This document shows positions 7,394 to 31,163 of a stretch of 64,000 nt of DNA, in pieces; the stretch's first letter is position 1; every line of letters starts with the position of its first letter. The notes beneath the pieces were generated by a model. That model had not been told where the DNA came from and did no database searches. It saw only the letters and a list, made by a program, of their open reading frames with translations. The translations under genes and the position numbers were made by a program. The stretch comes from an uncultured Mollicutes bacterium (GTDB lineage: Bacteria > Bacillota_I > Bacilli_A > RFN20 > CAG-826): positions 6,043-70,042 of the forward strand of contig UQFY01000011.1 of the NCBI GenBank assembly GCA_900540385.1, written 5' to 3'.

Positions 7394-7408
7394 GTTAACA
7401 TTTTTCGT

Positions 7409-7428: not shown

Positions 7429-7438
7429 TTTTAAAGAA

Positions 7439-7458
7439 ATAGTTAACCGATTAACTAT
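7439..7458. promoter_or_regulatory. Candidate LacI-family operator ATAGTTAACCGATTAACTAT
   Basis: 20-bp dyad (one mismatched pair) with a central CG, as in LacI/GalR operators. Lies 55 nt upstream of the first structural gene. Confidence 0.5.
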
Positions 7459-7512
7459 TTTTCTTTTCTATTCTATTTTTTGGTGAAATAATAATGTCAG
7501 TGAGGAATAAAA

Positions 7513-10182: not shown

Positions 10183-10212
10183 AAATAAAAATCTTTCAGA
10201 AAGGAATGAAAT

Positions 10213-12843: not shown

Positions 12844-12862
12844 GTAAAATAGTAGAAGATTT

Positions 12863-12887
12863 GGAGAGAGGGCAAAACCCTCTCTCC
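12863..12887 (+). promoter_or_regulatory. Intercistronic perfect 10-bp GC-rich stem-loop (partial terminator or mRNA stabiliser) before the SBP gene
   Basis: GGAGAGAGGG-CAAAA-CCCTCTCTCC with no long U tract. Lies between the 876-aa lipoprotein gene and the solute-binding protein gene. Confidence 0.6.
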
Positions 12888-12904
12888 TTATGGAGGTTTA
12901 ACAT

Positions 12905-14320: not shown

Positions 14321-14331
14321 AAAGGCAAATT

Positions 14332-15249
14332 ATGTTTAGAAAACCTACAATTGAACGCAAAAGGAACTGGAAAAGCGTCCTAAAGAGAAATGCTTTAGGA
14401 TGGGCTTTTATGATTCTCCCGCTTCTTTTGTTTACTTTTTTTGTTTGGTATCCGATGATAAGAAATTTCATTCTCGCTTTTCAAGATGGATATGAAGACG
14501 CTTCTTTTGTTGGTTTTCAGAATTTTATCGATGTATTTGAGGATCCCACATTCCTCTCTGCATTGAAAAACACCTTTCTTTATATCGGTTTCTCCTTGCT
14601 AATCGGATATTTGGTCCCTGTTATTTTAGGTTTTCTCCTATCCGAAGTAATTCACGCAAAAGGCTTCTTCCGAGTCGTTTTATATCTTCCTTGCATGATT
14701 TCTGGAATGGCAGTGGTCTTTCTTTTTAATTCCATGTATGGTGATGGATCAACCGATCTTTTCAACGTAATCATTATGAAAATGGGTTTTCAAGCCCATC
14801 CATGGAAAGGTTCCACGAATCTCGTTATTCCTCTTATCGTCCTTGCCATGACTTGGAAAGGGGCTGGAAGTACGGCTCTTATCTATCTTTCTGCTTTTCA
14901 AAGCATTGATGATTCGATGTATGAGGCGGCACGTATTGATGGAGCAAGTTCCGTTCAAAGATTTTCACGTATTACGATTCCTGCTTTAAGAGGGACTCTT
15001 CTTACCTTGTTTGTCTTACAAATTATCTCTGTTTTTCAAGTCTTCTATGAGCCTCTTGTCATTGGTCCTAAGGGAGGACCATTGGATGCGTCGATGTCTT
15101 TGATGTTACTTAGCTATTTATACGCTTTCGAGGATTTTGAATACGGAAAGAGCGCTGCTACTGCCTTAATTTTGGGCGGAATCATCATCCTTTTCACAAT
15201 TTTATATGCCCTTTTAGACAATTATTTAAAGAAAAAGGAGGGAAAATAA
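14332..15249 (+). CDS. Carbohydrate ABC transporter permease (MalF/UgpA-like)
   Basis: EAA loop EAARIDGASSVQRFSRITIPALRG. 6 TM helices. Confidence 0.9.
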   Translation: MFRKPTIERKRNWKSVLKRNALGWAFMILPLLLFTFFVWYPMIRNFILAFQDGYEDASFVGFQNFIDVFEDPTFLSALKNTFLYIGFSLLIGYLVPVILGFLLSEVIHAKGFFRVVLYLPCMISGMAVVFLFNSMYGDGSTDLFNVIIMKMGFQAHPWKGSTNLVIPLIVLAMTWKGAGSTALIYLSAFQSIDDSMYEAARIDGASSVQRFSRITIPALRGTLLTLFVLQIISVFQVFYEPLVIGPKGGPLDASMSLMLLSYLYAFEDFEYGKSAATALILGGIIILFTILYALLDNYLKKKEGK

Positions 15250-15250
15250 T

Positions 15251-16165
15251 ATGAAAAAATACGTTTTTCCTCGCTTAAAAGACAAAAGAAGTGGTTTTCT
15301 TAATTTTGCCGATTATCGTAACCCTGCCCATAAAGTTGGATATGCTTTTATCGTCTTTTTCCTTCTTCTTTTCTCTTTCATCGCCTTATTTCCAATTATT
15401 TATCTTTTAGCCTCTGCTTTAAAATCCGATGGGGAAATCAACTCTAGCATTTACACCTTTTGGCCAAAAGTATGGGATTTCGGTAGATTCGTCCGCATTT
15501 GGCAAACAATTGATTTCACCAAATATTATCTCAATACGTTTGTATACGTTATTGGGGCCGTCATTTGTGCCGTTCTCTTTAATTCTTTGCTTGCTTATGC
15601 AATCGCCATCATTAAACCATTCGGCTATAAGGTAATCGATAAATTCATCTTCCTCGGGTATATGATCCCGGCGACCTTAAACATCTTACCTCTTGCTAAA
15701 GAAATCGCTGATTTCGGGTTTCTTTCCAATCCAGATTCTTACCTTACTTTCTTGCCTTTGTGGCTTTCTTTTGGTGCTAACGCTTATTATTACATGCTTT
15801 TTAAAGATTATTTTTCTCGCCTTCCAAAATCTCTTATGGAAGCGGGAAGCATGGATGGAGCAGACCAACTACAAATTTTTAGAAGAGTAGTTCTTCCTTT
15901 AAGTAAACCAATGATTGGCATCGTGGCTATATTTTCGATGACCGCTTCCTATAGCGATTTCCTTCTTCCATATTTGGTTTTGCAAAGTAACAAACTAAAG
16001 ACCCTTATGGTCGGTATCTATAACATTGGCTCGGCTGGAGACATCCTAAAACCGGAAGATTTCTTGATGTTATTGGTCTTCTCTATCATCCCTCAATTAA
16101 TTATTTTCCTTATTTTCCAACGTCAAATTATGGGCGCTGGAGCGAATAAAGGAAGCAAGGAGTAG
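15251..16165 (+). CDS. Carbohydrate ABC transporter permease (MalG/UgpE-like)
   Basis: EAA loop EAGSMDGADQLQIFRRVVLPLSKP. 6 TM helices. Confidence 0.9.
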   Translation: MKKYVFPRLKDKRSGFLNFADYRNPAHKVGYAFIVFFLLLFSFIALFPIIYLLASALKSDGEINSSIYTFWPKVWDFGRFVRIWQTIDFTKYYLNTFVYVIGAVICAVLFNSLLAYAIAIIKPFGYKVIDKFIFLGYMIPATLNILPLAKEIADFGFLSNPDSYLTFLPLWLSFGANAYYYMLFKDYFSRLPKSLMEAGSMDGADQLQIFRRVVLPLSKPMIGIVAIFSMTASYSDFLLPYLVLQSNKLKTLMVGIYNIGSAGDILKPEDFLMLLVFSIIPQLIIFLIFQRQIMGAGANKGSKE

Positions 16166-16169
16166 TATT

Positions 16170-18434
16170 ATGGCTAAAGTAAGAACGAAATACTTAGAAA
16201 CAGAGCCTTTTTCCGTCAAAGAAATTGGGTTTCATAAAGAACGTAACCAAGTTAGCGAATCCATTTTCTCCTTAGGAAATGAATATAGTGGGGTTCGTGG
16301 TTTCTTTGAAGAAGGAATCTCTCTTCCATCCTTGATTGGAACCTATTACAACGGTATTATCGAAAACTCCTTAGAAGACACCCCAAGCGCCTATAAGGGG
16401 ATTGTGAAAAGAGGCCATTTCACGATCAACTCCACAAACTATCTTAAATGTGAGATTTACGCCAATGGGGAAAAGCTAGATTTAGCAAAAGTCTCTTTCT
16501 CTAATTTTGAAAGAACTCTTTCTTTTAAAAGTGGCCTTCTTGACCGCCGTTTTCTTTGGAAATTAAAAGACGGCACGGAAATCAAAGTCACCTTCCTCCG
16601 TCTTTTAGGCATGAAATCCCCCTTTGAAGCAATTCAAAGAATCTCCTTTGAAAGCAATCATGACGTCTCTCTTTCTCTTTCTTTATCCTTAAACGGCAAC
16701 ATTCTCCATTGGGGGAATCATTGTTATTGGGATAAAGGGGAAGTCATTAACGAAAATGAAGAATATGGTCTCTTTTTAAAAACGCCAACTACCCATCAAT
16801 CCTTATTAACTTTAATGAAGGTAGATTCGTCTTCTCTTCCAACCCACGCGGAAATGAAAGAAAAAGAAATTACCCTTTTCTATGAGATTCCTTTAAGAGC
16901 CAATAAGCAAGAAGAAGTCACCCGTTATGTGGTGAATATTGCGGATAAAGTGAGCGATAATCGTTTCTTAGAGAGAAAAGAAGAAGGGGAGAAAGAACTT
17001 TCTCTTCTAACGAAGAAAGGCTTCGAAGGCCTTTTAAAAGAAAACGAAGAATTCTTCCAAGACGCTTATCAAAAAAGCGATATCGAAATTGATGGGGATC
17101 CAGAGGATCAACAAGGTATCCGTTTTTGCTTGTTCAATCTTCAACAAGCCTATTGGGGTTTCTCGGAAGATAATAACATCGGGGCGAAAGGCTTAACAGG
17201 CGAGGCTTATTCTGGCCATGCCTTCTGGGATAGCGAAACATATTGCCTTCCTTATTATTTATTTACTAATAGAAAGGCTGCTAAAGACCTTCTTTTATTC
17301 CGTTATAACACTTTGAAAGAAGCGAAGGAAAGAGCAAAAGACCTCGATTGTGAAGGAGCGGCGTATCCTATTGCAACGCGTAATGGTAAAGAAGCGTGTA
17401 CGCTTTGGCAACATGCCTCCACCCAAATTCAGCCAACGACTGCGGTCGCATATGCGATATTCCATTACATGAATCTTTATCAAGATGTTGCTTTTATGAA
17501 CGAATATGGCTTAGAAATGTTGCTAGAAATCGACAAATTCCTTCTAACCCGTGGGCAATGGAACCAAACTCATAGCCATTTTGGCTATTATGGTGTGATG
17601 GGACCGGATGAATTCGAAGTCATGGTTAACCATAATATGTATACAAACATCATGGCTAAAAAGACTTTTGAATACACTTTAAAAGTGCTTTCGGATTCCC
17701 GCTTTGATTCTAAAAAGATCTTAGTAAAAACAAAATTTGATGAGAAACACATCCAAGAAATGAGAGAATGCATGGATAAAATGCTCATTCTTTATGATCC
17801 AAAAACTCATTTATATGAACAACATCAGAGTTTTTATGACCTCCCACACATTGACGTTGATAAGATTCCGGTAACGGATTTCCCTCTTTATTCTCATTGG
17901 AGCTACGATCGAATCTATCGTAATGACATGATTAAACAACCAGACGTCTTGATGTTCCTTTTCCTTTATAACCAGGATTTCTCCTATGAAGATAAAAAAG
18001 CCAACTATGAATATTACGAGCCTCGTTGTATTCATGAATCTTCCCTTTCTCCGTCGGTTCATAGCATTCTTGCTGAAGAGTTAGGAAAAGAAAAGGAAGC
18101 ACTTGATTTCTTTGGCTTTGCAACCCGACTTGACTTAGATGACTATAACCGTAATACCTCAGAAGGACTTCATATGACATCTATTGCCGCGGCATGGATG
18201 AATATCGTTTATGGCTATTTAGGACTTCGTTCCGATAAAGAGGAACTCTCCGTTAACCCATCCTTGCCTAGTAGATGGAAACATTATTCCGTTAAAATCA
18301 CCTATCACGGTTCTTTATTGCGTTTCGATGTTTATCCTAAGAAACTTCTTATTCATAACGAAGGAAAGCCTGTTGAAGTGAACCTTTATCATAAGAAAGT
18401 TCTTCTTGATGGTTTAATGGAGTTCTCTCGATGA
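16170..18434 (+). CDS. GH65 family alpha-glucoside phosphorylase (kojibiose/nigerose/maltose-phosphorylase type), copy 1
   Basis: GEAYSGHAFWDSETYCLPYY, catalytic-acid motif GPDEFE, phosphate-site HESSLSPS. 754 aa. Confidence 0.9.
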   Translation: MAKVRTKYLETEPFSVKEIGFHKERNQVSESIFSLGNEYSGVRGFFEEGISLPSLIGTYYNGIIENSLEDTPSAYKGIVKRGHFTINSTNYLKCEIYANGEKLDLAKVSFSNFERTLSFKSGLLDRRFLWKLKDGTEIKVTFLRLLGMKSPFEAIQRISFESNHDVSLSLSLSLNGNILHWGNHCYWDKGEVINENEEYGLFLKTPTTHQSLLTLMKVDSSSLPTHAEMKEKEITLFYEIPLRANKQEEVTRYVVNIADKVSDNRFLERKEEGEKELSLLTKKGFEGLLKENEEFFQDAYQKSDIEIDGDPEDQQGIRFCLFNLQQAYWGFSEDNNIGAKGLTGEAYSGHAFWDSETYCLPYYLFTNRKAAKDLLLFRYNTLKEAKERAKDLDCEGAAYPIATRNGKEACTLWQHASTQIQPTTAVAYAIFHYMNLYQDVAFMNEYGLEMLLEIDKFLLTRGQWNQTHSHFGYYGVMGPDEFEVMVNHNMYTNIMAKKTFEYTLKVLSDSRFDSKKILVKTKFDEKHIQEMRECMDKMLILYDPKTHLYEQHQSFYDLPHIDVDKIPVTDFPLYSHWSYDRIYRNDMIKQPDVLMFLFLYNQDFSYEDKKANYEYYEPRCIHESSLSPSVHSILAEELGKEKEALDFFGFATRLDLDDYNRNTSEGLHMTSIAAAWMNIVYGYLGLRSDKEELSVNPSLPSRWKHYSVKITYHGSLLRFDVYPKKLLIHNEGKPVEVNLYHKKVLLDGLMEFSR

Positions 18435-20560
18435 AAGATATCATTTCGTGTGACACATATAACAGAAATGAACGTATCCTTGAAGGAAATCGTTTTCTTA
18501 TTGGCAATGGCCATTTAGGGTATCGCGGTTCTTTAGAAGAGGAAAACAAGGAAGAGATGAAAGGCCTTAACCTTGTTGGAGTCTATGATAAATACGAGGA
18601 TAAGTGGAGAGAATCCATCAATATGCCTGATCCTCTTTTCTTAAGAACTTTCGTTGAAAATTCCGAAGAAGATATCAAAACAGCGGACTCATTATGCCAT
18701 AATATGTCTCTCCATTTGGAGAAAGGATACTTCTCTAGAAAGTCTTCCTTCCCGAATTATTGCATTTCAAGTGAACGTTTTCTTTCATTTGAAAGAGATA
18801 ATTTGCTTGCTTCAAAAATTGAAATCGAGGCGAAGCATTCTCATTCTTTTTTCTTCCATTATGGATTGGATTTGAACGTCTATGAAATAAATGGCCCCCA
18901 TTTTAAAGTGAAAAACGTTAAAGAATTACGTAATTGTCTCCTTTTTGAAGGTGTTACAAACGAAGGAAGACATCTTTTTGAGGCGGTTTCTTATCGCGTT
19001 CATCCTTTGAAAGGAAACTCAGAAACAACCTCTCCCCATTTAGAAAACCGTTCTATCTATGTTTCGAATTTCTCTTTAAAAGAAGGAGAAAAAGTACAAT
19101 TTGAAATCTATTCTCTTATCTTTGAAGAAGAAAAAGACTTCGAAAAAGAGATGGATAAAATTCTATCTTTAGGATACGAAGAGTTGAAAAACGAACACAC
19201 GTCCCTCTTCTTTTCGCTATATAAGAATGCGAAAGTCTCCTTAAAAGGTGATCCAAACGGAGAAATAGAAAGCAACTACTCCATCTATATGTTGCTTATT
19301 TTAGGCGATAGGAATCGATTCCGTTCTATTCCTGCTAGAGGGGTAAGCGGTCAAACCTATAAAGGCGCGATTTTTTGGGATACGGAGATTTTTCTTTTGC
19401 CATTCTTTTCTTTCCAAGAACCAGCAGTAGCCAGAAACCTATTGAAATATCGTATTCATACTTTAGAAGGAGCGAAAAAGAAAGCGAAAGAATTTGGATA
19501 CGAAGGTGCTTTCTTTGCTTGGGAAAGCCAAGATAATGGTCTTGAAGCCTGTTCAAAATATAACGTGACAGACTATAAGACGGGCAAGCCAATCCGCACC
19601 TACTTTAACGAAAAACAAATTCATATTAGTGCGGATATCGCCTATGCTTTCGAGAATTATGAAAAAATCACCGGTGATTCCTCTCTTCTATATGAAGGAG
19701 GCATGGAGCTTCTTCTTGAGATCTCGCGTTTCTTTTTATCTTACGCAACCTTTAGAAATGGAGAATATCATCTAGACGACGTCATTGGTCCAGATGAGTA
19801 TCATGAAAGAATCAACGACAACGCTTTTACCAACTACATGGTTCAACACGCTTTACGTTACACATTAAGGAAATTAGAGGAAAACCCTTCTTTCTTGGAC
19901 AAATACTCCTTGGATAAAATGAAAATAGAGGACTTCCTATCTAATTTCTATCTTCCGAAAGCAAATTCCTCAGGGGTTATCGAACAATTTGAAGGCTATT
20001 TCCAAAAAGAAGACTGTTCCGTGGATGAAGTTCGTTCTCGCCTTAAGGATCCTAAGCAATACTGGGGTGGAAAAGACGGGCCTGCTTCACCGACACAAAT
20101 TATTAAACAAGCAGATGTTGTCGCGATGCTCGTTCTCCTTAGCGATGAGTTCCCGCTTGCGATAAAGAAAGCAAACTACGATTATTATTTCCCTCGAACG
20201 GAACACGGTTCCTCCCTTTCTTCCAGTATGTATTCTTTATTAGCCACGGAAATCGGTGAAAAAGAATACGCTTATAAGATGTTCCGGAAATCCGCTTCCA
20301 TCGATTTATACGGCCCACAAAAGCTCTTTGCTGGGGGCGTTTATATTGGAGGCAGCCATCCTGCTAGCGAAGGAGGAGCGTATATGTCTCTTCTCTATGG
20401 CTTTTCAGGATTAAAAATCCATGGGAAAGAAATCAACGTCTCAAACAACTTGCCAAAAGAAATAAAGGAATTGAAGTATTCCATCTTCTTCCAAGGCGAA
20501 CGTTATCTAATTGATATTCAAGAAAATAAAAATACTATCAAGAAGGAGGTATCCAAATGA
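18431..20560 (+). CDS. GH65 family alpha-glucoside phosphorylase, copy 2 (divergent paralogue)
   Basis: GQTYKGAIFWDTEIFLLPFF, GPDEYHE, HGSSLSSS. ATGA overlap with copy 1. Confidence 0.9.
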   Translation: MKDIISCDTYNRNERILEGNRFLIGNGHLGYRGSLEEENKEEMKGLNLVGVYDKYEDKWRESINMPDPLFLRTFVENSEEDIKTADSLCHNMSLHLEKGYFSRKSSFPNYCISSERFLSFERDNLLASKIEIEAKHSHSFFFHYGLDLNVYEINGPHFKVKNVKELRNCLLFEGVTNEGRHLFEAVSYRVHPLKGNSETTSPHLENRSIYVSNFSLKEGEKVQFEIYSLIFEEEKDFEKEMDKILSLGYEELKNEHTSLFFSLYKNAKVSLKGDPNGEIESNYSIYMLLILGDRNRFRSIPARGVSGQTYKGAIFWDTEIFLLPFFSFQEPAVARNLLKYRIHTLEGAKKKAKEFGYEGAFFAWESQDNGLEACSKYNVTDYKTGKPIRTYFNEKQIHISADIAYAFENYEKITGDSSLLYEGGMELLLEISRFFLSYATFRNGEYHLDDVIGPDEYHERINDNAFTNYMVQHALRYTLRKLEENPSFLDKYSLDKMKIEDFLSNFYLPKANSSGVIEQFEGYFQKEDCSVDEVRSRLKDPKQYWGGKDGPASPTQIIKQADVVAMLVLLSDEFPLAIKKANYDYYFPRTEHGSSLSSSMYSLLATEIGEKEYAYKMFRKSASIDLYGPQKLFAGGVYIGGSHPASEGGAYMSLLYGFSGLKIHGKEINVSNNLPKEIKELKYSIFFQGERYLIDIQENKNTIKKEVSK

Positions 20561-22362
20561 AAAAAGGAATGATATTCGATTTAGATGGAGTCATTGTCTC
20601 TACTGACCATTACCATTATTTAGCGTGGAAAAATATGGCAGATAAAGAGGGTATTCCTTTTGATGAGGAAACAAACAATCGTCTTAGAGGAATCTCTCGC
20701 ATGGCTTCCTTGGAAATTATTCTTGAGAAAGCATCAAAGACCTACAGCCAGGAAGAAAAAGAAAAACTATGCGAAAAGAAAAACAATATTTACCGCGAAT
20801 CTTTGAATCAACTTACCCCAAAAGACGTCGATCCCGATACTCTAGCAACGCTCATTCAAATCAAAAACATGGGGATTAAAACAGCCATTGGTTCCTCTAG
20901 CAAGAACACCAAATTCATTCTTGAAAGAATTGGCTTATTAGACTTCTTCGATGAAATTGTTGACGGAACGATGATCTCTCATTCAAAGCCGGACCCAGAA
21001 GTCTTTCTTCTTGCAGCAAAGAAAATTGGGCTAGAACCAAAAGATTGTGGTGTAGTGGAAGATGCATACGCAGGGGTGGAAGCCGCAAAACGTGGAGGCT
21101 TCACTTCTTATGGCATTGGCGATGCTTCAACCTCTCCCAATACGGATTACCCATTAAAGAAGATGAGCGACCTTCTTATCTATTTAAACGAAAAAAAGGA
21201 AGACAAACCTAGAATTGCCATCGAACATTTATATAAGACTTATCCGAATGGATTTACAGCCACAAAAGACTTTAGCCTTACTATCAATGATGGGGAATTT
21301 GTGGTATTTGTTGGCCCTTCAGGCTGTGGAAAATCCACCGTCTTAAGAATGATTGCAGGCTTAGAAGATGTCACAAAAGGAAAAATTCTTCTCGATGGGG
21401 AGGATATCACGGATAAAGAAGCGAAAGACCGTGACATCGCAATGGTTTTCCAAAACTATGCTTTATACCCACATTTAAGTGTTTTTAAAAACATTGCTTT
21501 CCCACTTGAGGTGGAACGTGTTCCTTTAAAACATTTCTTTGACTTTAAATATCGTAAACAAAGAAAAGCAGACATTAAAAAGAAAGTAGAAGACGCAGCC
21601 TCTAAAATTGGCTTAAGCGACTACTTAGAAAGCAAACCAGCAAATCTTTCGGGTGGGCAAAGACAACGTGTGGCTTTAGGAAGAGCCATTGTCCGTGATC
21701 CAAAAGTCTTCCTTCTTGATGAACCTCTTTCCAATCTCGATGCCAAGATGCGTGTTCAAATGAGATCGGAAATCACCCGTCTTCATGACAAGCTAAAAAC
21801 TATTTTCATCTACGTCACACACGACCAAGTCGAAGCGATGACCATGGGCACAAAGATCGTTGTCTTAAAAGATGGAGTTATCCAACAAGTCGGCACACCA
21901 GAAGACATCTTCCTTAATCCAGTGAACCAATTTGTTGCAGGTTTTATTGGAACGCCTCAGATGAATTTCTTTAATGCCCGCATTCGAAAAGAAGGGAACC
22001 AGTATTACGCTTCTTTGGAAGGCAGACAAAAAGAACTCCTTCTTCCTAAGGAAAGAATGAAAAACTTCTCTGATCAATACCTTGATAAAGAAATGGTTTT
22101 AGGAATCCGTCCAGGAGCCATCTCCGTTAAAGGGGATTTAGATTATCAAGAACAAGGTTTCTTAGCCCACATCAACCTCTTTGAACAACTCGGAGAAGAA
22201 ACCCTCTTATATGTTACCTTCCCCGGAAAAAAGGAAGACCTTATCATTTCTACGACAGGTTTAGGTAGATTTCATAAAGAAATGGATGTTGGAATATCTT
22301 TCAACTTAGAACATGTATGTTTATTTTCCAAAGAAACAGGCGAATCTCTCTTAAAAAGATAG
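20557..22362 (+). CDS. Fusion protein: beta-phosphoglucomutase (HAD) N-terminal domain plus MsmK/UgpC/MalK-type sugar ABC ATPase
   Basis: N-terminus FDLDGVIVST (HAD motif I), SSSKN and EDAYAGVEAAK. From about residue 215: GPSGCGKST (Walker A), LSGGQRQR, FLLDEPLSNLD and a MalK-type C-terminal regulatory domain. One uninterrupted 601-aa ORF. Confidence 0.85.
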   Translation: MKKGMIFDLDGVIVSTDHYHYLAWKNMADKEGIPFDEETNNRLRGISRMASLEIILEKASKTYSQEEKEKLCEKKNNIYRESLNQLTPKDVDPDTLATLIQIKNMGIKTAIGSSSKNTKFILERIGLLDFFDEIVDGTMISHSKPDPEVFLLAAKKIGLEPKDCGVVEDAYAGVEAAKRGGFTSYGIGDASTSPNTDYPLKKMSDLLIYLNEKKEDKPRIAIEHLYKTYPNGFTATKDFSLTINDGEFVVFVGPSGCGKSTVLRMIAGLEDVTKGKILLDGEDITDKEAKDRDIAMVFQNYALYPHLSVFKNIAFPLEVERVPLKHFFDFKYRKQRKADIKKKVEDAASKIGLSDYLESKPANLSGGQRQRVALGRAIVRDPKVFLLDEPLSNLDAKMRVQMRSEITRLHDKLKTIFIYVTHDQVEAMTMGTKIVVLKDGVIQQVGTPEDIFLNPVNQFVAGFIGTPQMNFFNARIRKEGNQYYASLEGRQKELLLPKERMKNFSDQYLDKEMVLGIRPGAISVKGDLDYQEQGFLAHINLFEQLGEETLLYVTFPGKKEDLIISTTGLGRFHKEMDVGISFNLEHVCLFSKETGESLLKR

Positions 22363-24050
22363 GATTTTTCTTCCTCGGTTTATTTATGCTTTCATCTTGT
22401 AAGGAAAACCTTCCTTCTTTTTCGAGTCAAGTAAACACAAGTGACATTTCTTCTTTAGATTCAAAAGAAGACTTTGCCTCAAGCTTTCCTAAGGATGAGA
22501 ATGGTTTTAAGATTGTCGAAAAAGATTATTTTTCAAATAAAGAAGATCCCTCCTCTAAAGGCGAGACCAATCAGGTTAAATTTGGAGAAAAGATTGAGGG
22601 CGTGCCTATATATTCCTCTTTCAAACTCTTTCTTGCTGGAGAAGAAGTTCCGGTATATTCGGTTAAAATCAATCAAGATCAAACATGGAGCGCAGAGGCT
22701 AAAAACCGCGTTGCTACAGGAGTGGCCTCTTTTTCTCTTAAAGGGAAAGCAACATTAAAACTCCAATGTGCTTTTAATCCATTAAATGACGTTAAAATTC
22801 GTCCTTTAGGAAGAAATATTCCTTTTCAAATAGATTCTGCACGTTGGGTCATTTCTTTTGAAATTGATACCCCAGGGCAATATGTAATTGAAACGAGGTA
22901 CCGTACCCTTCATCTTTTCGTAAATGAATGGAAAGAGACGCCTCAAAACACAATTGTTTTTTCCTCTGGGCTTCACACGAAAGAAAATGATAATCGCATC
23001 AATTCTAACAACGAGATTATTTTACATAATGGGTCTCATATTTTCTTGGAAGAAGGCGCAATCGTTCGAGCAAAAATCAAAGCCTACGATGCTTATCATA
23101 TTTCTATTTCTGGTCCTGGTTTTATCGACGGCTCCCTTTTTGAAAGAAATGTGAGTAAAGGGATTGCGAATGTCCCTTTAGATATTTCATTTTGTAATGA
23201 TGTAACTTTGGAGGACTTTTTCGTTCTTGATCCCGCTGGATGGGCATTTAATCTATATTTTTCAAGTAATCTTCATCTTAAAAATACAAAAATCATCTCT
23301 TCTCGCTCAAATGGAGACGGAATATCCGTCCAATCTTGTAAGAACCTGGAGGCAGACTCTTGCTTTGTGAGAAGCTGGGATGATTCTTTGGTCGTGAAAA
23401 ACTACGTCAATTGGAGAACGAATCAAGAGGGGGAGACCTCTTCCATCCATTTTAAGAATTGCCTGATTATTACAGATCTCGCTCAATCAATGGAAATCGG
23501 TTACGAAACCATCGGAGAGAAAATGGAAGACATCTCTTTCGAAAATATCAGTGTTCTTCACGCTTATCACAAACCCGTATTTTCCATTCATAATGGGAAT
23601 AACGCTAAAATACGCAATGTAACTTATAAGAACATAACGGTAGAGGATCTTTCTATCGGAAAAGGAGATGGAACACCCTATCTTTTTGATTTTGACGTGT
23701 CGCATTCTTCTACTTGGTCCGATGCCCATAAAATCACTTCGCTGGGGGACATCGATGGAGTTCATGTTGAGAATATAAAAATCATTGCTGGAAGAGAGGC
23801 CCCTAAAATCAAAATTACAGGTTCCTTAGAAAAAAGAAACGGCTTTCCGAATGTTGCGCATAAGTTTTTTAATGTCACTTTCAAAGATGTTGATATATAT
23901 GGTAAAACGCTTGATTCATCTTATTCTTATTTAGAAACGGCTTATGCCGAGAACGTTCAATATCAAAAGACGGGGAAAGTAATTACCGGAGCGACTTATC
24001 CAAAGACAGATGTTTCCTCTTTTAGTAATAATATCATCCGTGTGAAATAA
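22317..24050 (+). CDS. Beta-helix glycoside-hydrolase-like lipoprotein, paralogue of 7513..10182 without discoidin domains
   Basis: Lipobox FMLSSCKEN. SRSNGDGISVQSCKNLEADSCFVRSWDDSLVVKNY and AQSMEIGYET match the first paralogue. The start at 22317 overlaps the upstream gene by 46 nt and is uncertain. Confidence 0.7.
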   Translation: MFIFQRNRRISLKKIGFFFLGLFMLSSCKENLPSFSSQVNTSDISSLDSKEDFASSFPKDENGFKIVEKDYFSNKEDPSSKGETNQVKFGEKIEGVPIYSSFKLFLAGEEVPVYSVKINQDQTWSAEAKNRVATGVASFSLKGKATLKLQCAFNPLNDVKIRPLGRNIPFQIDSARWVISFEIDTPGQYVIETRYRTLHLFVNEWKETPQNTIVFSSGLHTKENDNRINSNNEIILHNGSHIFLEEGAIVRAKIKAYDAYHISISGPGFIDGSLFERNVSKGIANVPLDISFCNDVTLEDFFVLDPAGWAFNLYFSSNLHLKNTKIISSRSNGDGISVQSCKNLEADSCFVRSWDDSLVVKNYVNWRTNQEGETSSIHFKNCLIITDLAQSMEIGYETIGEKMEDISFENISVLHAYHKPVFSIHNGNNAKIRNVTYKNITVEDLSIGKGDGTPYLFDFDVSHSSTWSDAHKITSLGDIDGVHVENIKIIAGREAPKIKITGSLEKRNGFPNVAHKFFNVTFKDVDIYGKTLDSSYSYLETAYAENVQYQKTGKVITGATYPKTDVSSFSNNIIRVK

Positions 24051-24052
24051 CG

Positions 24053-24120
24053 AACTTCAGTCAAAATGAAGTGAAGTATGAAGTAACAATGAAGTAATAC
24101 TTCACTCTTACTTCATTCTT
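24053..24120. repeat. Direct repeat DR-B copy 1 (59-bp core 24062-24120) with four TGAAGT and two inverted ACTTCA hexamers
   Basis: The 59-bp core matches 25625-25683 at 58 of 59 positions. Weaker similarity extends 9 bp leftwards. Starts just after the stop codon of the preceding gene. Confidence 0.9.
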
Positions 24121-24150
24121 TCGTTATAATATTGATGGGAGGTAAAGAAA

Positions 24151-25617
24151 ATGCTTTTTGAAGAACTAGTCCCCAATACAAATCTCGAAGATTATGAAGT
24201 GGAATTTAAAGGAATTATCAATGAAGGCTTTGATAATGAAACAAAGCAAAGAGTAGAGAATGGGTGGCTAAAAGAAATTGCTGCTTTTGCAAATACTTTT
24301 GGCGGAGTCCTCTATGTTGGTGTAGAAAACAAAACCCATAAAATCGTTGCCTTATCCCACGAATGCGCAGATAAAATCACCTTAATGGTTCAAAGATTAA
24401 TCCCTTTACACATCGAGCCTCCTATTCGCTATACAATCGAAAAAATACCGGTTCCAGAAGTTTCGCCAACTCGCTATGTTCTAGGGATACATGTAGAAAA
24501 AAGCAAATTTCCACCGGTTTCTCTTCACATTAATGGGACGAGTGTTATTTATGTAAGACACTTTGGAAAAACAAGCCCTGCAACAGGTGAAGAAATACGT
24601 AACCTAGTGTTATCTAGCGATTCTGTCTCCTATGACATTATGGAAACAGATGAATTTTTCCATAAAGAAGATTTTCAAATGCTGTTCTCTTTCTACAAGG
24701 AGCAGAACAACGGGAAAGAATTGACGGAAAAAGATTTATTTAACATTGGTTTTTTCACGCTTGATAAAAAATTAAAAAGAGGAGCCATTCTTTTCCGTGA
24801 TAATTGCAATGATTCAAGAACGTTAATCGAATGTTCTGCCTTCCCTGGCATCAGCAAAGGGGACAATCTTTTCCTTGCAAGCAAAAAAATACAAGGAAAC
24901 TTAATTGAAGAATACAAAGAAGCCATGGACTTTATTGAATCTCGTTCTATCAACGGCTTTGAAAAAACACCTAACGGAAGAAAAGATATCTTTTCCTTTC
25001 CAAAACGTTCCCTCTCAGAAGGAATTGCCAATGCCATCGGACATCGCAACTATTTTATTCAAGGTGGACAAATTGAAATCAATGTTTTTAAAGACCGCTT
25101 GGAGATTATTTCGCCAGGTTCTTTGCCCACCCATAAATGGTTGCAAAAAGAAACCAATCTAGCTCAAATTCCTCCACTTCGGAGAAATGAACTTATTTGC
25201 GCAGTCTTTACTCTTTGCAAAATCATGGATCATAAAGGCAGTGGTTTTGACAAAATTGAGCAAGAATACAAAGAATATGGACCGAAATTCGCACCCTTTG
25301 CGGATTCTGACGATTCCTTTTTCTCTTTAACTCTTCCCGATCTTACTCATCCTTCGGGCCTCGTATCAAGCAACGAAAAACCAGCCGTTTATACGATAAA
25401 TGGGGAAGAAACAGCTAAACAATTAGAAATACTTTCTTATTGTTGGAATGCTCCACATACCGCTTTAGAAATCGCTGAAATGCTTGGCATAAAGCCTTCT
25501 AATTATTTCCGAAAAGAAATCATCCAACCTTTAATGGAGAAAAACCTACTTTTGATGAGCAATTCGACTTATCCGGCCAAATATTATTCCAATCACAACA
25601 CCGTCTTCCCAAAATAA
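24151..25617 (+). CDS. AlbA_2 (Schlafen-like) / HATPase_c_4 / winged-helix putative transcriptional regulator (RecG-like misnomer family)
   Basis: EDYEVEFKG...LKEIAAFANTFGGVLYVGVEN (AlbA_2). GIANAIGHRNYFIQGGQIEINVFKDRLEIISPGSLP (HATPase_c_4). C-terminal wHTH-like region. Confidence 0.8.
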   Translation: MLFEELVPNTNLEDYEVEFKGIINEGFDNETKQRVENGWLKEIAAFANTFGGVLYVGVENKTHKIVALSHECADKITLMVQRLIPLHIEPPIRYTIEKIPVPEVSPTRYVLGIHVEKSKFPPVSLHINGTSVIYVRHFGKTSPATGEEIRNLVLSSDSVSYDIMETDEFFHKEDFQMLFSFYKEQNNGKELTEKDLFNIGFFTLDKKLKRGAILFRDNCNDSRTLIECSAFPGISKGDNLFLASKKIQGNLIEEYKEAMDFIESRSINGFEKTPNGRKDIFSFPKRSLSEGIANAIGHRNYFIQGGQIEINVFKDRLEIISPGSLPTHKWLQKETNLAQIPPLRRNELICAVFTLCKIMDHKGSGFDKIEQEYKEYGPKFAPFADSDDSFFSLTLPDLTHPSGLVSSNEKPAVYTINGEETAKQLEILSYCWNAPHTALEIAEMLGIKPSNYFRKEIIQPLMEKNLLLMSNSTYPAKYYSNHNTVFPK

Positions 25618-25683
25618 CTTCGCACAAAATGAAGTGAAGTGTGAAGTAACAATGAAGTAATACTTCACTCTTACTTCATTCTT
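25616..25683. repeat. Direct repeat DR-B copy 2
   Basis: See copy 1. Begins within the stop codon of the AlbA_2 gene and lies upstream of the giant lipoprotein gene. Confidence 0.9.
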
Positions 25684-25856
25684 AAAAAACCTTGAAAAAT
25701 AAGCATCTTTTTGGAATTTATATGCTTTCCTATTCCTCTAGAGTAGATTTATATAGATATCTTTATTAAAATTAGGCTATGTTCAAAAGAAAGAGAAACA
25801 GGCTTATCGATAAACGAAAACCTTTTTTCTTAATCTTTTATATATAGGAGATAAAT

Positions 25857-28800
25857 ATGAACAAAAAGAAGCTACTCGTTCTCTTACCTGCAGCTCTCCT
25901 TGCTCTCAGTGGATGCAATCCTAGCGAACCAGGACCATCATCCTCTGAAAAATCAAGTGAAGCTAGCCAAGTTGTCTCTTCAGAAGAGGCTAAAAAGACT
26001 TACCAAGTAACCATTACGCAAGTGGAACACGCTCACGTTGAAGCTGACAAAACGCAAGCGGAAGTGGGTGAAACGTTACTTTCACTATCACAACCGATGA
26101 AGACTATCACGTTTCTTCCTTCAAAGTGAACGGAAACGATGTCACTATTACCGGCAACAAAGCTACCGCTACAATGGTGGAAAATGGCTTAACTGTCACA
26201 ATTGCAGTGGAAGCAAACACTCATGACGTTACCATCCACTCTTCGGAAAATGGTACGGTAGTTGCCGATAAAACAACGGCAATCGTTGGCGATAGAGTTA
26301 CTTTCACCATCACACCAAATGATGACTTTGAACTGGATACTTTCAAAGTCAATGGTGAAGCAAAAGAAGTAACAAACAACACTTACGAAGCCACAATGGT
26401 CAAAGAAGGATTAACCGTTGATACGACCTTCAAAGCAATCAAACATGCCGTTACCATCAATAAAAATGCTGGTGGAACAGTCACCGCAGATAAATTAGAA
26501 GCGATCACCGGAGAAGACGTCACCTTAACCGTCACTCCAGATACGAACTATCATTTATCCGCATTATATGTTAACGGCAATTCTGTTTCTGTCGGAGAAA
26601 GTGGAACCGTCGTCGTTAAGATGGTTAAAACTGGATTAATCGTTTCTGGCGTCTTTGCTAAAAAGAGAGCGCCTATTACGGTTACTGACACAAAAGGCGG
26701 AACCATTCGTACATCGTCAACAACGGATGCCACTATTGGAGAAGAAATTGAAATTCAAGTCTATGCAGATGATGGCTATGAATTAGATAAACTCCTCGTC
26801 AATGGGGAAGAGACGGAGGTTGATTCCGAAGGGTTTGCCTATGTTACAATGGTCGAAGGCGGACTTACTATCACGGCAACCTGGAAAGAACTTGCTAAAG
26901 CAATCACCATTGCTCCATCCACAAACGGCACCGTTACTGCCAATAAAGAAAAAGCTGCTGTTGGAGAAAGCGTTACTTTCACTATCTCCCCAGCCGAAGG
27001 CTACCACCTCGAATCCTTTAAAGTAAATGGAGCTGAAGTGGAAGTCACTGGCAATAGCTATGTCGCCAATATGACTGAAGCAGGCCTTTCTATCGAAGCA
27101 ACCTTCTCTGATACTTACCGCGTTGCATCTATCTCTGAATCCTTAAAGACAACCATCAAAGGATTAGATACTGCTAAGGTTACTTTAACTGCTGATTCAA
27201 CAATTGATACCATCCCTCTTGCTAAGAAAGATACTATCATCGATTTAGGTGGAAAGACCTTAACGGTTACCTCGGCTGTTGCTATCTATGCCTTACCAGG
27301 AGAAGGTGGCACACACGTTCAAAATATCACCGTTAAAAACGGAACCATCAATGTCACGGGTGCTCTTGCAAACGGAAACATCATCAATGCTTCTGATGCT
27401 CTATCCTTCACTTTAGATGGTGTTACGCTTACCAACACGACTTTAACTTACACAGGTATCTATTGTTCTTCCTCTACAGACTTAGAAATTAAGAATTCTA
27501 CTTTGGATCTTAAAGCCATCTTCGGTATTGGAACGAATAACCTCGAAGGAAAGAATGCTAAGATCCTTATGGATAATTCCCATCTTACCGTCACCACCGA
27601 TGATAAAGATAATGCTGCCTTCTTAGGAAATGTCGAAGGCATCAACGTCACCTTCAAAAACTCCACACTCCAAGCTGATAGACAAGCTCTTATCGCTCGT
27701 ACTGGCACTTGGAAAGCCGATGCTACAACTTTCGAAACCACTGGTGCTTGGTTAACCGAAGCTACAAAAGCCAAGAATGATTCTTATCTTACTGGCGTTT
27801 GGAAAGCAGGAAACGAAGTTCCATCTGCTGCAGTCGTTATCGGTGATAATGTTGCAGACGCTTATAACGAAGACGTCAACTTTACTTTCGCCAATTCTTG
27901 TAAATTCGTTGCTCCAGCTGGAAACAAAGTCGTTTCTAGAGTTGATGGAACACATAACACAACCATCAACTTTGATGCCTTAACCTATGTCAACGCTTAC
28001 GATTCTATGGATAATGGCACAGGTGTTAACGTTGTGACTCCAAACGTTCTTACAAAAACCATCGCTGAGATGAATGCGTTAACCGAAACTGATGATAAGA
28101 ACTTATATGTTGTTAAAGGCGTTATCGAAAACGTTACTAATGAAAAGTATGGCAATTGTGTTATTAGAACCGTTGAAGGCGAAACATTAACAGTTTATGG
28201 TTCTTACACATCAGGAGTTACCTATCAAAAAAATGCACAAGGCTCTTACGAGATCGCCAAAAAGTCTTCCGTGCCAACTAAGCGTGTCTATGTTGGATAC
28301 GAAGTAACGATGATTGGCACCTTCTTGAAATACAACACCACAGCCGAGCTTATTGATGCCAAAGTCTTCGTTGGAGATATTTCTCAAGGCTATAAAGCAA
28401 GCATTTCTTCTAACGATGCTAGCTTTGGAACTGTCGCTTTAAGCAAAACAGAAAATTTGATCTATGGTGAAGAAATTACCGTAACCGCAACACCTGCGGA
28501 AGGCTACAAAGTCGCATCGGTCATGTTAGATGATGATTCTACAAATCAAAAAGACATCACTGCTGATATGAAATTTAATGCTTCTTTTAAAAACGAAGTT
28601 ATAGTCACTTTTGTTCACGAAGATGCAAAGGTCGCAAAAACATACAATGTTGCTTTCAAAAAAGAAAACCAACAATCGCCTTGTGATCAATACAATCAAA
28701 CCTGGAAAAATGTTTCTGAAAATCGCAGCTACACGATAGAGAATTGTAGCAACTACAAGAATGGTTGGGATTTCATCAAGGCCGGAAGAAAAGCTGATGC

Positions 28801-29116
28801 TTCGGTCGCTTCCATAACTACAGATGCTCCGTTTGCCGAAGCGATTGGTGTCGCCTCCATTACATTTAAAAAATTTAAGGGAAGTAATGTAAATTCCATT
28901 AAGGTGATTTCTTCTACTGATGCTAAGTTTGAAAATGTGATTGAAGAAGTTGGCATTACGGGAAAGGCTGATTCAACCATCAAAGCCACATTCACCAAAC
29001 CAACTGCAAACGCTTATTACAAATGGGTCTTGGATTTGAAATCTGACGGAGGCACTAAAAAGAGTAAAAACGGCTTCATTGAAATTGATTCTCTCTCATT
29101 CGTTGAAGCAATCTAA
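25857..29116 (+). pseudogene. Giant surface lipoprotein (divergent InlB B-repeat-like ~80-aa repeats + parallel beta-helix + OB-like module) split by a 1-nt frameshift at about 26072
   Basis: Lipobox LALSGCNPS. The repeat consensus VTI..GTV.ADK..A.VG..VTFTITP......FKVNG starts in ORF 25857-26129 and continues in the frame of ORF 26126-29116, which is open from 26072. One extra A in AAA 26071-26073 would read GENVTFTITTDEDY. Confidence 0.65.
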
Positions 29117-29351: not shown

Positions 29352-31163
29352 ATGAGTAAGACAGACTTAGAAATTCAATATGAACAAATTCAAGAAAAGA
29401 TAGATTCTCTTCCCAAAGGATATCTTTCCAAAAAGAAGATTAATGGCAAGGAAAGAATTTATCGTCAATGGAATGAGAATGGGAAAAAATATAGTAAATA
29501 CGTGCCAAATGAAGAAATATCATTGGTTTCAAAAGAAATAGAGATTCGAAAAAACTTAGAGAACATTCTTTCCTCTATTTCTTCTTACGCTTTAGAAATA
29601 AATTCCGCAAAAAAGAGAGTTTCTTCGAATAAGAAACATGGAATTTCCTATTTTGTTGGTAAGGATCTAAAAGGACTAATTGAAGATTATAGGGGTTACA
29701 AACATCGTTACGCTTTCAAGGAATTGGAACGTTTTCTTTATGATACAAAAACATTAGATAAGAAACGCCTTCTTATCCTTTATGGCTTAAGAAGGACAGG
29801 GAAAACGACCCTTATTATGCAAGCCCTTTTGAATATGAAAGAAGAGGACTTTAAAAAATCTGCTTTCATTGAATTAAATTCTCATTCTGAAATGGGTGAC
29901 CTTTATGAACTTTTAAAGAGCCTTAAAGAAAAAGGTTATCGCTACATCTTTTTAGATGAAGTAACAGATATGAAAGACTTCATTGATGGTTCAGCTTTTC
30001 TTTCAAACCTCTTTGCTTCGGAAAATATGAGAATCGTTCTTTCTGGGACGGATTCTTTAGGATTTATTTTTTCTAAAGAAGACTCCTTATATGACCGTTG
30101 CTATTTTTTACATATTTCCTTCATTCCATTTAAAGAATTCTCTTCGGTTTTGGGCATCAATGATATCGATTCCTACATCGAATATGGTGGCACGATGTCT
30201 CTATCAGGGATGATTTATTCTCAAAGAAAATCGTTAAGCAAAACAAATCCTTATGTCGATGCGGCTATTGCGGATAACATTCAACATTCTTTGGCCTATT
30301 ATAAAAATGGAACTTATTTTCGCGATCTATATGAATTATATGAACGAAAAGAACTCAAAAATGTCATCAATCGTGTTGTAGAGGATTCAAACCATCGCTT
30401 TGCTCTAGAGGTTTTAAATCAAGATTTCATATCCCATGATTTAGGCATATCACGAAACAACCTTCGAAAAGAAGATGATAAATATCACGTTCTTGATCGA
30501 ATTCAAAGAAATAAAGTGGAGGATGTCCTAAAAACATCTTTAGGCATCTTAAACAAAAAAGAACGCTCCATTTCTTTAAAAGAAGCTCACCGAGAGGAAA
30601 TCGAAACCTATTTAGAAGAGCTAGAAATCATTAACAAAGTAGATCTTCTCTCAGAGAATTCTTTAACACAAAGAAATGTCATCACGATTGCAGGGCTTCG
30701 CTATTCTCAAGCAAAGGAGTTGATCTTAAGCTTAAAGAAAGATAAAGCTTTTCAGTCTTTAGAAAGAGAAACGGAAGAATACGTTATTGAAAGAATCCTC
30801 AATGAAATCAAAGGAAGAATGCTTGAAGATATCCTTCTTTTGGAAACTTCTTTAGCAAATCCTTCTCTTCAAGTGAGCAAATTCCTATTCCATTCTGGTG
30901 AATTTGATATGGTTATTATCTACAGAGACCATTCTGAAATCTTTGAAATCAAACATAGTAAGGAAAGAAACATAAGCCAAGCGAAAAACCTTTTAGATGA
31001 CAAGAAATGCGTTCTTTTCGAAACAAAGTTCCCCAAAATAACAAGAAAAGTCGTTCTTTATCGAGGGGAAAGGGCAAAAGAAGGCGAAATTGAATACCAA
31101 AACCTGGAGAAATACCTTAATTCCCTATCTTTTGAAAACTATTTCTCCTTGGCCCCCCATTAA
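29352..31163 (+). CDS. AAA_14-type ATPase with DUF4143-like C-terminal domain and about 130-aa N-terminal extension
   Basis: Walker A GLRRTGKTT, Walker B IFLDEVTD. The C-terminal FDMVIIYRDHSEIFEIKHS resembles the restriction-endonuclease-like DUF4143 core. Confidence 0.7.
   Translation: MSKTDLEIQYEQIQEKIDSLPKGYLSKKKINGKERIYRQWNENGKKYSKYVPNEEISLVSKEIEIRKNLENILSSISSYALEINSAKKRVSSNKKHGISYFVGKDLKGLIEDYRGYKHRYAFKELERFLYDTKTLDKKRLLILYGLRRTGKTTLIMQALLNMKEEDFKKSAFIELNSHSEMGDLYELLKSLKEKGYRYIFLDEVTDMKDFIDGSAFLSNLFASENMRIVLSGTDSLGFIFSKEDSLYDRCYFLHISFIPFKEFSSVLGINDIDSYIEYGGTMSLSGMIYSQRKSLSKTNPYVDAAIADNIQHSLAYYKNGTYFRDLYELYERKELKNVINRVVEDSNHRFALEVLNQDFISHDLGISRNNLRKEDDKYHVLDRIQRNKVEDVLKTSLGILNKKERSISLKEAHREEIETYLEELEIINKVDLLSENSLTQRNVITIAGLRYSQAKELILSLKKDKAFQSLERETEEYVIERILNEIKGRMLEDILLLETSLANPSLQVSKFLFHSGEFDMVIIYRDHSEIFEIKHSKERNISQAKNLLDDKKCVLFETKFPKITRKVVLYRGERAKEGEIEYQNLEKYLNSLSFENYFSLAPH

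Follow-up and report, generated by a model that had tools for sequence, protein, structure and literature searches.

A TGAAGT hexamer array as the probable operator of an AlbA_2/Schlafen-type gene that it brackets on both sides

Why should a single bacterial gene lie between two nearly identical copies of a repeat? The question is raised by a 64,000-nucleotide (nt) stretch of DNA from an uncultured Mollicutes bacterium (assembly GCA_900540385.1, contig UQFY01000011.1, positions 6,043 to 70,042 of the forward strand), hereafter the window. In this window, a gene with AlbA_2/Schlafen and HATPase domains is flanked by two direct repeats packed with the hexamer TGAAGT and its inverse, ACTTCA. The original prediction offered two answers: a cassette that was inserted at a hairpin site and duplicated it, or an operator array for the encoded DNA-binding protein, placed before its own gene and before the large adhesin-like gene that follows. 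We compared the locus with related loci and arrived at a modified form of the second answer. The locus is probably an autoregulated single-gene defense-type module that is bracketed by its own operator. The part of this reading that identifies the array as the operator of the encoded protein is strongly supported by the comparison and is likely correct.

Realignment confirmed the repeat pair. The direct repeat is 68 nt long (24053-24120 and 25616-25683); its copies are identical at 64 of 68 positions (94%) and start 1563 nt apart, which is the length that had been given for the unit of repeat plus gene. The 59-nt core, with 58 of 59 positions identical as predicted, occurs exactly twice in the window and had no match in 100 shuffles. 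Both copies stand directly behind a stop codon: copy 1 begins 2 nt past the TAA of an upstream GH28-like open reading frame (ORF; 22317-24050), and copy 2 overlaps the TAA of the AlbA_2 ORF (24151-25617). The four direct and two inverted hexamers described for each copy were recovered, and at 24054 copy 1 has one more inverted hexamer. In copy 2, this additional hexamer is degenerate (ACTTCG) and the pattern is otherwise the same. When folded as single-stranded DNA, each copy forms the imperfect hairpin that had been proposed (-14.3 and -13.2 kcal/mol, with z values of -4.4 and -4.7). No Rfam family matched the window repeat. The features of the locus are the following.

24053-24120, plus strand: left (5') hexamer array, from the repeat alignment, the hexamer search and an alignment of 32 copies.
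24067-24072, 24072-24077 (an overlapping extra), 24079-24084 and 24090-24095: TGAAGT hexamers of the left copy on the plus strand.
24054-24059, 24099-24104 and 24110-24115: ACTTCA hexamers of the left copy, which are TGAAGT on the minus strand.
24101-24130, plus strand: core promoter of the AlbA_2 gene, with the -35 box TTCACT at 24101-24106, an 18-nt spacer and the -10 box TATAAT at 24125-24130.
24137-24142: ribosome-binding site GGGAGG of the AlbA_2 gene.
24151-25617, plus strand: AlbA_2 gene, encoding a 488-aa protein (Pfam, family alignments, AlphaFold2 model and Foldseek).
25616-25683, plus strand: right (3') hexamer array, which begins on the stop codon and has no -10 box.

Does the array belong to the place or to the gene? 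A degenerate version of the hairpin core (24 specified bases) was searched against 185,579 species-representative genomes. It was found at 27 loci, about two thirds of which adjoin an AlbA_2 gene or its empty site, and no genome held more than one cassette or one solo array. With two copies in the window and this small number of loci elsewhere, the core is not a widespread repetitive extragenic palindromic (REP) or terminator element. At 12 or more of the core-matching loci, an AlbA_2 homologue (63-78% protein and 67-74% DNA identity) lies between two element copies that are 85-100% identical over their aligned parts. These bracketed homologues occupy at least seven distinct contexts with different flanking genes. 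The homology to the window spans 24046-24070 through 25682-25684, i.e., it runs from array edge to array edge. The homologue at locus L017, which is 40% identical in protein, is bracketed too. Since the same element accompanies homologues in at least seven unrelated contexts, a target duplication specific to one locus and a generic genomic repeat are excluded. The labels of the metagenome-assembled genomes (MAGs) from which the L016-L042 records come are unreliable for host range. Low-GC contigs are binned there as E. coli, Alistipes, Bacteroides, Faecalibacterium and others, a 38%-GC cassette contig under E. coli being an implausible example, and mis-binning is the most likely explanation for such labels. 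The window itself derives from a gut lineage of Bacillota that is uncultured ('Bacilli bacterium').

To define the element, 32 distinct array copies were aligned in a common orientation. The layout is ACTTCA at positions 2-7, 47-52 and 58-63, and TGAAGT at positions 15-20, 27-32 and 38-43. The hexamer positions are 96.7% conserved compared with 74.6% elsewhere. Spacer positions that face each other in the hairpin are paired in 25-78% of the copies and follow no compensatory pattern. In five loci (L018, L024, L026, L032 and L041), the inner 25 bp of the array (positions 33-57) are the exact reverse complement of the window version, reading AACAA..AAT..CTCTT instead of AAGAG..ATT..TTGTT, while the outer stem and the gene orientation are unchanged. 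Where such a locus has two copies, both are in the same state. The inversion possibly arose by template switching or by recombination between inverted hexamers.

A metagenome scan with a profile of the protein family extended the comparison to 80 loci at 32-63% identity, of which 73 are full-length. Many are close kin, and 58 dereplicated members were placed in a neighbor-joining tree. Of the full-length homologues, 70 of 73 have 3-11 TGAAGT/ACTTCA hexamers within 160 nt upstream, against a chance expectation of about 0.08. Among the remaining three, L088 has an array of the shifted motif TAGAAGT, L089 has an array of ATCTAGAA, and L090 has none. The L045 lineage carries an array of another shifted motif, GCGAAGT. 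Seven TGAAGT hexamers, all direct, precede the homologue on pCY360 of the cultured Butyrivibrio proteoclasticus (35% identity). That locus, L043, also has a different palindrome of 25-28 nt (CGGTACGTAAAAT..ATTTTACGTAC) at 2279-2307 and 4024-4050; the pair encloses the hexamer array, the gene and a terminator, and a truncated tyrosine-recombinase gene adjoins.

The hexamers of the family arrays are strongly biased to the sense orientation. Between hexamers of the same orientation, the distance is 11 bp in 103 cases and 12 bp in 49, and harmonics appear at 22-23 bp, so the spacing is that of one site per DNA helical turn. In distant homologues (clade I of the tree and L087), the arrays are all-direct, and for this reason the hairpin of the clade that holds the window appears to be a by-product of having some hexamers inverted. 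One alternative of the original prediction had taken the hairpin as an insertion site; the hexamers are the conserved feature, and the folded hairpin as a selected feature was rejected on the missing spacer compensation and the all-direct arrays. Taken across hosts and contexts, the comparison shows that the hexamer array is cognate to a family of proteins that combine AlbA_2, HATPase_c_4 and a winged helix-turn-helix (wHTH).

The left array overlaps the core promoter of the family gene. In the window, TTCACT-18 nt-TATAAT agrees with the sigma-70 consensus at 10 of 12 positions. The -35 box lies on hexamer 5, hexamer 6 lies within the spacer, and the -10 box follows just beyond the repeat. Inverted hexamer 5 doubles as the source of the -35 box, in agreement with the earlier claim that copy 1 supplies this box for the TATAAT. 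A -10 box (at least five of six positions matching) was found 8-9 nt after hexamer 6 in 13/13 left copies, 0/14 right copies and 0/9 solo copies, and the -35 box in left copies is TTCACT or TTCATT, again on hexamer 5. Outside the bracketed loci, the best promoter directly follows the array in all 12 unbracketed clade-II loci. For clade I, 24 of 26 loci have it within the array or at the array's 3' end, with a -35 box from a conserved TTGACT spacer. For these other family loci combined, the promoter is inside or just past the array in 36/38. Given these positions, transcription from the gene's own promoter leaves out most of the array, a point against a role as RNA.

We next consider what the gene encodes. 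Pfam assigns SLFN_AlbA_2 (E 1.8e-16) and HATPase_c_4 (E 8.3e-19) to ORF 24151-25617. The AlphaFold2 model (predicted local distance difference test score, pLDDT, 86.3) has a Schlafen-like N-terminal domain, a central GHKL ATPase and a C-terminal wHTH. The modelled wHTH spans residues 422-480, with helices at 422-430, 438-445 and 451-463 and strands at 467-470 and 477-480. Weak Pfam HTH matches fall in the last 70 residues, and the homologue P0088 exceeds the cutoff of Sigma70_r4. In Foldseek, the uncharacterized structure 3LMM was the best match, followed by the N-domains of SLFN5/11/13/14, the tRNase domain of SAMD9 and GHKL kinases; the profile matches in the PDB were SLFN5/11/14 and CbCash. 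Residues E13, E18, K20 and D74 are invariant across the family alignments. Cash is a tRNA nuclease with the catalytic pair E17/D22 (PMC13462974), and Avs9 is a toxic AlbA_2 protein with the pair E14/D19 (PMC12680541); the spacing of E13/E18 is the same as in both. Like Cash and Avs9, which are defense-associated and toxic when active, the window family has an N-terminal AlbA_2 domain with an acidic pair five residues apart. In contrast to Cash and Avs9, in which the nuclease is fused to a Csx15 sensor or a STAND NTPase, it is fused here to a GHKL ATPase and a wHTH. The encoded protein is thus likely a toxic, defense-type nuclease effector, as predicted from its domains, and a toxic nuclease would need tight control. 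The family (COG2865 type) is widespread, linked to defense islands and uncharacterized, and we found no paper that describes this AlbA_2 family architecture, its operator or the bracket.

The recognition helix starts with S-x-Y-x-R, which is at least 80% conserved among members that use TGAAGT. Members with a shifted motif are altered in this helix (Y to H in L089 and L090, S to T in L045, and K to E in L088). The covariation of the recognition helix with the array motif is suggestive, with exceptions in L017 and L097. The wHTH domain would bind the hexamer array as duplex DNA, one hexamer per helical turn, and the bound protein would repress its own promoter, as co-occurrence, geometry and domain content suggest.

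What, then, would the 3' array do? As copy 2 stands between the AlbA_2 gene and the adhesin-like gene, it had been proposed as an operator for the latter. The comparison did not support this: no right copy carries a -10 box, and the 3' copy starts at the stop codon whatever follows, the downstream gene being co-oriented in some loci and convergent in others. The same points led us to reject the 3' copy as an operator of the downstream gene in general. The operator claim was upheld for the gene's own promoter, by the arrays upstream of its homologues, the helical spacing, the promoter overlap and the modelled wHTH, but not for the adhesin-like gene. In the tree, the 27 loci of clade I never have a 3' copy and the terminal subclade that holds the window always has one. 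It is also present in scattered deeper lineages (L074, L086, L087, L088, L089 and L017/L097) beside unbracketed sisters. Both bracketing arrays of L087 are all-direct, and a hairpin is impossible there. L088 and L089 use the same shifted motif in both copies of the locus.

The two copies of a locus evolve in concert. Left-right identity averages 0.957 within a locus versus 0.83-0.84 between loci, the genes between the copies are 26-30% diverged between loci, and the nearest neighbor of 15/16 copies is the copy's own partner. In contig L030, the right copy was converted towards its left copy. Under the operator reading, the 3' array may be a second operator that acts by cooperative looping, as OL and OR do around cI-rexAB in phage lambda. 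Alternatively, it may titrate the protein, as the iterons behind rep do in P1 and F, or form a transcriptional roadblock. In any of these ways, a second operator could keep a dangerous gene shut and insulated wherever the gene lands.

The next question is whether the bracketed gene comes and goes. L017 has a clean empty counterpart in locus L027, where the flanks on both sides are homologous and only one array (repeat of about 62 nt) is left. This solo array is chimeric, its left part matching the left copy and its right part the right copy. Two further pairs of empty and occupied sites are L026 versus L018, and L032 versus L024/L041. The search for empty alleles in related genomes was therefore positive in three pairs, and the unit of insertion or deletion (indel) between related genomes is the gene plus one array. 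The cassette half of the original prediction holds to the extent that the unit is present or absent as a whole and one repeat is found at empty sites; it does not hold in that the repeat is no pre-existing target. The lack of a -10 box in solo arrays is as expected for deletion between the copies, and pre-insertion sites would look alike. In our proposal, recombination between the copies would remove the gene and leave one chimeric array.

No empty allele was found for the window's own locus, whose closest relative, L030, is occupied and at which the Logan contigs break at the repeat. Nor was recent movement seen, since identical or near-identical proteins were always in the same context across samples. 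None of the genomes in the core scan combined a cassette with extra solo arrays. A recombinase was not consistently nearby among the related loci, no integrase adjoins either cassette of the window (a second one is described below) or occurs at the related loci, and no known recombinase domain was detected in the encoded protein with Pfam or Foldseek. For many family members, the longest contig is 1565-1593 bp; such contigs show assembly breaks at the repeats and not circles. Locus L040 (2054-3519), whose context is common with L034, holds an AlbA_2 pseudogene in three frames with an intact right array, and the left array core went undetected there. The solo arrays L020, L031 and L037 were considered as regulon operators, but they have only about 100-120 nt around the array in common and no clear gene downstream, so they say little on this point. 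A blastn search of phage genomes gave no match to the window element. The only hit in a viral contig, in IMG/VR contig L149 (1057-1105), was dismissed. It consists of five hexamers (two TGAAGT, three ACTTCA) spaced by 11 nt, an iteron-like run inside an ORF of a high-GC contig, and is probably unrelated.

The original prediction also pointed to a second, unrelated cassette of the same architecture at 52781-54168. This was confirmed in the window, and it holds for the family of its gene in other contexts. Its features are the following.

52781-52821, plus strand: left palindrome, GTTACAAA-N17-TTTGTAAC, followed by an extended -10 (TGATAAAAT).
52906-54129, plus strand: gene with AAA_14 and DUF4143 domains (Pfam), PDC-S01 in PADLOC.
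54128-54168, plus strand: right palindrome, identical to the left copy at 41/41 positions and overlapping the stop codon.

The PADLOC model PDLC04787 (PDC-S01) matches residues 2-401 of the cassette-2 protein with an E value of 7.7e-127. PDC-S01 has been described as the fourth most common candidate defense system, consisting of an ATPase with a PD-(D/E)XK nuclease, with a defense role that is largely unvalidated. The palindrome GT[T/C]ACAAA-N17-TTTGT[A/G]AC also brackets every homologue of about 70% identity from three other contexts (4/4 with the window). At these loci, an extended -10 follows the first palindrome, which stands 36-85 nt ahead of the start codon, and the second palindrome begins at the stop codon. 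In L058 and L063, the two copies have come to differ in the palindrome loops but retain the arms, a pattern that suggests that both are under selection. The PDC-S01 gene at 52906-54129 is built like the AlbA_2 gene, around a palindrome of its own. L063 (1-4668) has three tandem AAA_14 + DUF4143 paralogues, behind which lies a Fic gene. Upstream of the middle paralogue, another palindrome (TGAAAACTTT..AAAGTTTTCA) occurs twice, and this paralogue lacks a 3' copy. A cognate site of its own seems to go with each paralogue.

On either side of cassette 2, we made two further observations. The last gene before it is an N-formylglutamate amidohydrolase-family gene (52091-52771), directly preceded by an S-adenosylmethionine (SAM) riboswitch at 51961-52078 (Rfam RF00162, 62.8 bits). 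Behind it, a Sir2-family gene starts about 32 nt past the right palindrome, with a TATAAT 23 nt past the palindrome (54165-54210), and the right junction may supply or influence the promoter of this gene.

The specificity of the bracket was determined by scoring upstream against downstream repeats (threshold, a score of at least 24) for 353 ORFs, 43 from the window and 310 from the fetched loci. In the window, only the AlbA_2 gene (56) and the cassette-2 gene (41) reached the threshold and all others scored 12 or less. All positives, 2 in the window and 35 in the fetched loci, are AlbA_2 or PDC-S01 genes, and 0 of about 270 neighboring genes scored.

How well does an autoregulated module bracketed by its operator stand up to other explanations? 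Several points weigh against it. The proposed link between the protein and its site comes from co-occurrence and geometry. The covariation of helix and motif is imperfect, since L017 and L097 lack R454 yet use TGAAGT, and the model of the PDC-S01 protein (pLDDT 59) is too poor to judge whether it has a DNA-binding domain. As many as 39 of the 58 tree members, all of clade I included, have no 3' copy; given that most lineages do without it, the 3' copy is not essential for regulation. Canonical terminators, for which the 3' copy might be a substitute, are present at 1/19 bracketed loci versus 9/39 others. In addition, a life cycle of the bracketed gene that relies on recombination, which we hold to be unlikely, would account as well for concerted evolution and for the way the 3' copy abuts the stop codon in two unrelated families. 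One form of such a cycle is a mobile single-gene cassette, with the arrays as attachment (att)-like sites and a circle of array plus gene that is excised and re-integrated at solo arrays. The catalyst would be the encoded nuclease/GHKL/wHTH protein or a host recombinase, in the manner of integron cassettes or of units of the insertion sequence (IS) IS26. Such a cassette would account for an indel of exactly one array and the gene between the members of three species pairs, the chimeric arrays at empty sites, the end of homology at the outer array edges between cassettes in different contexts, and the near-identity of the left and right copies. It would likewise fit the compact unit with its 3' copy at the stop codon in two unrelated families, the patchy distribution of the bracket on the protein tree, the presence of the family in MAGs labelled as different phyla, and the inner inversion in five loci. 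However, ordinary homologous recombination between direct repeats of 60-70 bp explains the solo arrays, and sharp homology edges are expected anyway, because at about 70% DNA identity only the functional module can be aligned. The searches described above showed no recent movement, no genome with a cassette plus solo landing arrays, no recombinase that is consistently nearby and no known recombinase domain in the protein, and an operator role suffices to explain the array in the 39 unbracketed lineages. We consider the mobile cassette an unlikely explanation. A rather unlikely one is that the 3' copy has no function and arose as a side effect of duplication in tandem, or of unequal crossing-over, at the operator, to be homogenized by gene conversion until the gene is deleted. 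That most lineages are without it and that it carries no promoter would agree with this, as would concerted evolution, which shows that the copies recombine, and the solo arrays, which show that the bracket is unstable. A neutral direct repeat should vanish quickly by deletion, though, and the bracket persists across lineages that are only 40% identical in protein. Moreover, the arms in L058/L063 are kept in both copies despite diverged loops, and the same stop-codon design recurs in two unrelated families and in no neighboring genes.

An element that acts as RNA is very unlikely. It would be a terminator, a stabilizing 3' hairpin, or a repetitive RNA that binds and inhibits the Schlafen RNase like a type III antitoxin. 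The N-terminal domain does belong to a family of tRNA nucleases, the 3' copy is transcribed and can fold, canonical terminators are scarce at bracketed loci (the single case among 19), and the hexamers are strongly sense-biased. Yet the left array lies upstream of the -10 box in 13/13 bracketed and 12/12 unbracketed clade-II loci, and in clade I the promoter is inside the array, most of which is untranscribed. The 11-12-nt spacing fits the helical repeat of DNA, compensatory pairing is absent, the all-direct arrays of L087 form no hairpin, and unbracketed members are without any transcribed copy. Insertion with long target duplication, by which a resident hairpin such as the terminator of the upstream gene would be duplicated upon insertion of the gene, is highly improbable. 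The repeat does stand right after the upstream stop codon and empty sites do have one copy. This fits a published category in which direct repeats of more than 30 bp match a single copy in the empty genome, described for restriction-modification units (Furuta, Abe and Kobayashi 2010, PMC2853133). The likeness extends to repeat-flanked defense genes and to the lack of a transposase or integrase (PMC2853133). There, however, the repeat is derived from the target and differs per locus (PMC2853133), whereas the window repeat is cognate to the gene family and would have a promoter/operator role. We ruled out this mechanism because the same hexamers are present in at least seven unrelated targets and many hosts and upstream of 70/73 homologues. 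The chance that the array is a generic host repeat unrelated to the gene, of the REP/BIME (bacterial interspersed mosaic element) or terminator kind, is negligible. It is an extragenic imperfect palindrome, as such a repeat would be; its only two copies in 64 kb are both at the AlbA_2 gene, the 185,579 genomes have only 27 core loci, and it has no Rfam match.

The preferred reading, the operator bracket, has parallels among known systems. In the lambda immunity region, OL and OR stand on either side of rexB-rexA-cI, and the repressor ties the two arrays together in a loop that tightens autoregulation. There, a repressor gene that is co-transcribed with the RexAB abortive infection genes has its own multi-site operators on both sides, 2-3 kb apart, and one of them overlaps its promoter; the window has a like arrangement around a putative repressor gene. 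In lambda, both arrays are promoters of divergent lytic operons and the sites are 17-bp palindromes. In the window, by contrast, the 3' array lacks a promoter, each helical turn has one hexameric site, the arrays are near-identical direct duplicates, and repressor and effector would be one polypeptide. For the window arrays, looping is a proposal by analogy. In P1 incC-repA-incA and F incB-repE-incC, a rep gene lies between arrays of its own binding repeats. The upstream iterons overlap the promoter and mediate autorepression, and the downstream array titrates or handcuffs. The likeness is a gene bracketed by direct arrays of short repeats, with the upstream array at the promoter. The P1 and F proteins are WH1-WH2 initiators, the upstream array is an origin and the iterons are about 19-22 bp; the window loci, in contrast, have no origin feature, Rep fold or plasmid context and are chromosomal and stable. 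Type III toxin-antitoxin systems (such as ToxIN) also have an array of short direct repeats right before the gene of an endoribonuclease-type toxin. The repeats of ToxI measure about 36 nt and function as transcribed RNA, whereas the window arrays have an 11-12-nt period with the promoter within or after the array.

Integron cassettes are compact units of a single gene that border on an imperfect palindrome at the 3' side, and they are usually promoterless. Integron cassettes and IS26 translocatable units are like the present locus in that element repeats bracket the gene and the repeat plus the gene is the indel unit. Unlike integron cassettes, the window cassette has its own promoter and the same sequence at both flanking sites; unlike IS26 units, its repeat encodes nothing. 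We rejected an integron attC identity, because neither repeat has R'' (RYYYAAC) and R' (GTTRRRY) cores at its ends and there is no integrase. Hairpin-ended elements of the IS200/IS605 type or palindrome-associated transposable elements (PATE) were rejected as well, because the hairpin structure, which such elements need for recognition as a single strand, is not conserved and no TnpA is nearby, although a Y1 transposase might act in trans.

The operator reading gives the uncharacterized AlbA_2 family a testable DNA motif, TGAAGT once per helical turn at the promoter, and a regulatory model. It also brings together two unrelated single-gene defense candidates that share a bracket of their own operator copies, concerted evolution and gene loss to a solo array. 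The bracket explains why these genes break into contigs of about 1.3-1.6 kb during assembly, and solo arrays become a marker of past gene loss. We think it unlikely that the operator bracket is a general design or life cycle of minimal single-gene defense modules, in which a toxic effector binds its own flanking arrays both to repress itself and to excise and re-insert as a circle of array plus gene. Such a translocatable unit, recombinase-free or self-encoded, would have arisen independently in two unrelated families, one of them PDC-S01, among the commonest candidate defense genes in prokaryotes. Should the arrays turn out to be substrates for recombination, the module would count as a minimal mobile element of a new kind.

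The surroundings of the AlbA_2 cassette were also inspected. The nearest related contig, L030 (about 90-93% identical), fuses window position ~6122 to ~23951, and about 17.8 kb are missing there. The absent block (window 6123-23950) includes GH65, HAD/MalK-like ABC, GH28-like and other carbohydrate-utilization genes. On the right, the block ends within the GH28-like ORF, about 100 nt short of the 3' end of this ORF and a little to the left of array copy 1; the gap has the look of a deletion in L030 from which a remnant of the gene survives. The adhesin-like gene downstream of copy 2 appears split into a 90-aa ORF (25857-26129) with a signal-peptide-like start and a GTG-initiated 996-aa ORF (26126-29116; InlB B-repeat domains, Flg_new_2) that overlap by 4 nt. 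In the related contig L001, a 99-aa product is called at this position. The split could reflect a frameshift, a pseudogene or phase variation. A third defense-like ATPase gene lies at 29352-31163, 3.7 kb from the AlbA_2 cassette, with an AAA_14 domain and weak matches to nSTAND6 and PDC-S01. No flanking repeat was found around this gene, and the region around the AlbA_2 cassette may be a small defense island.

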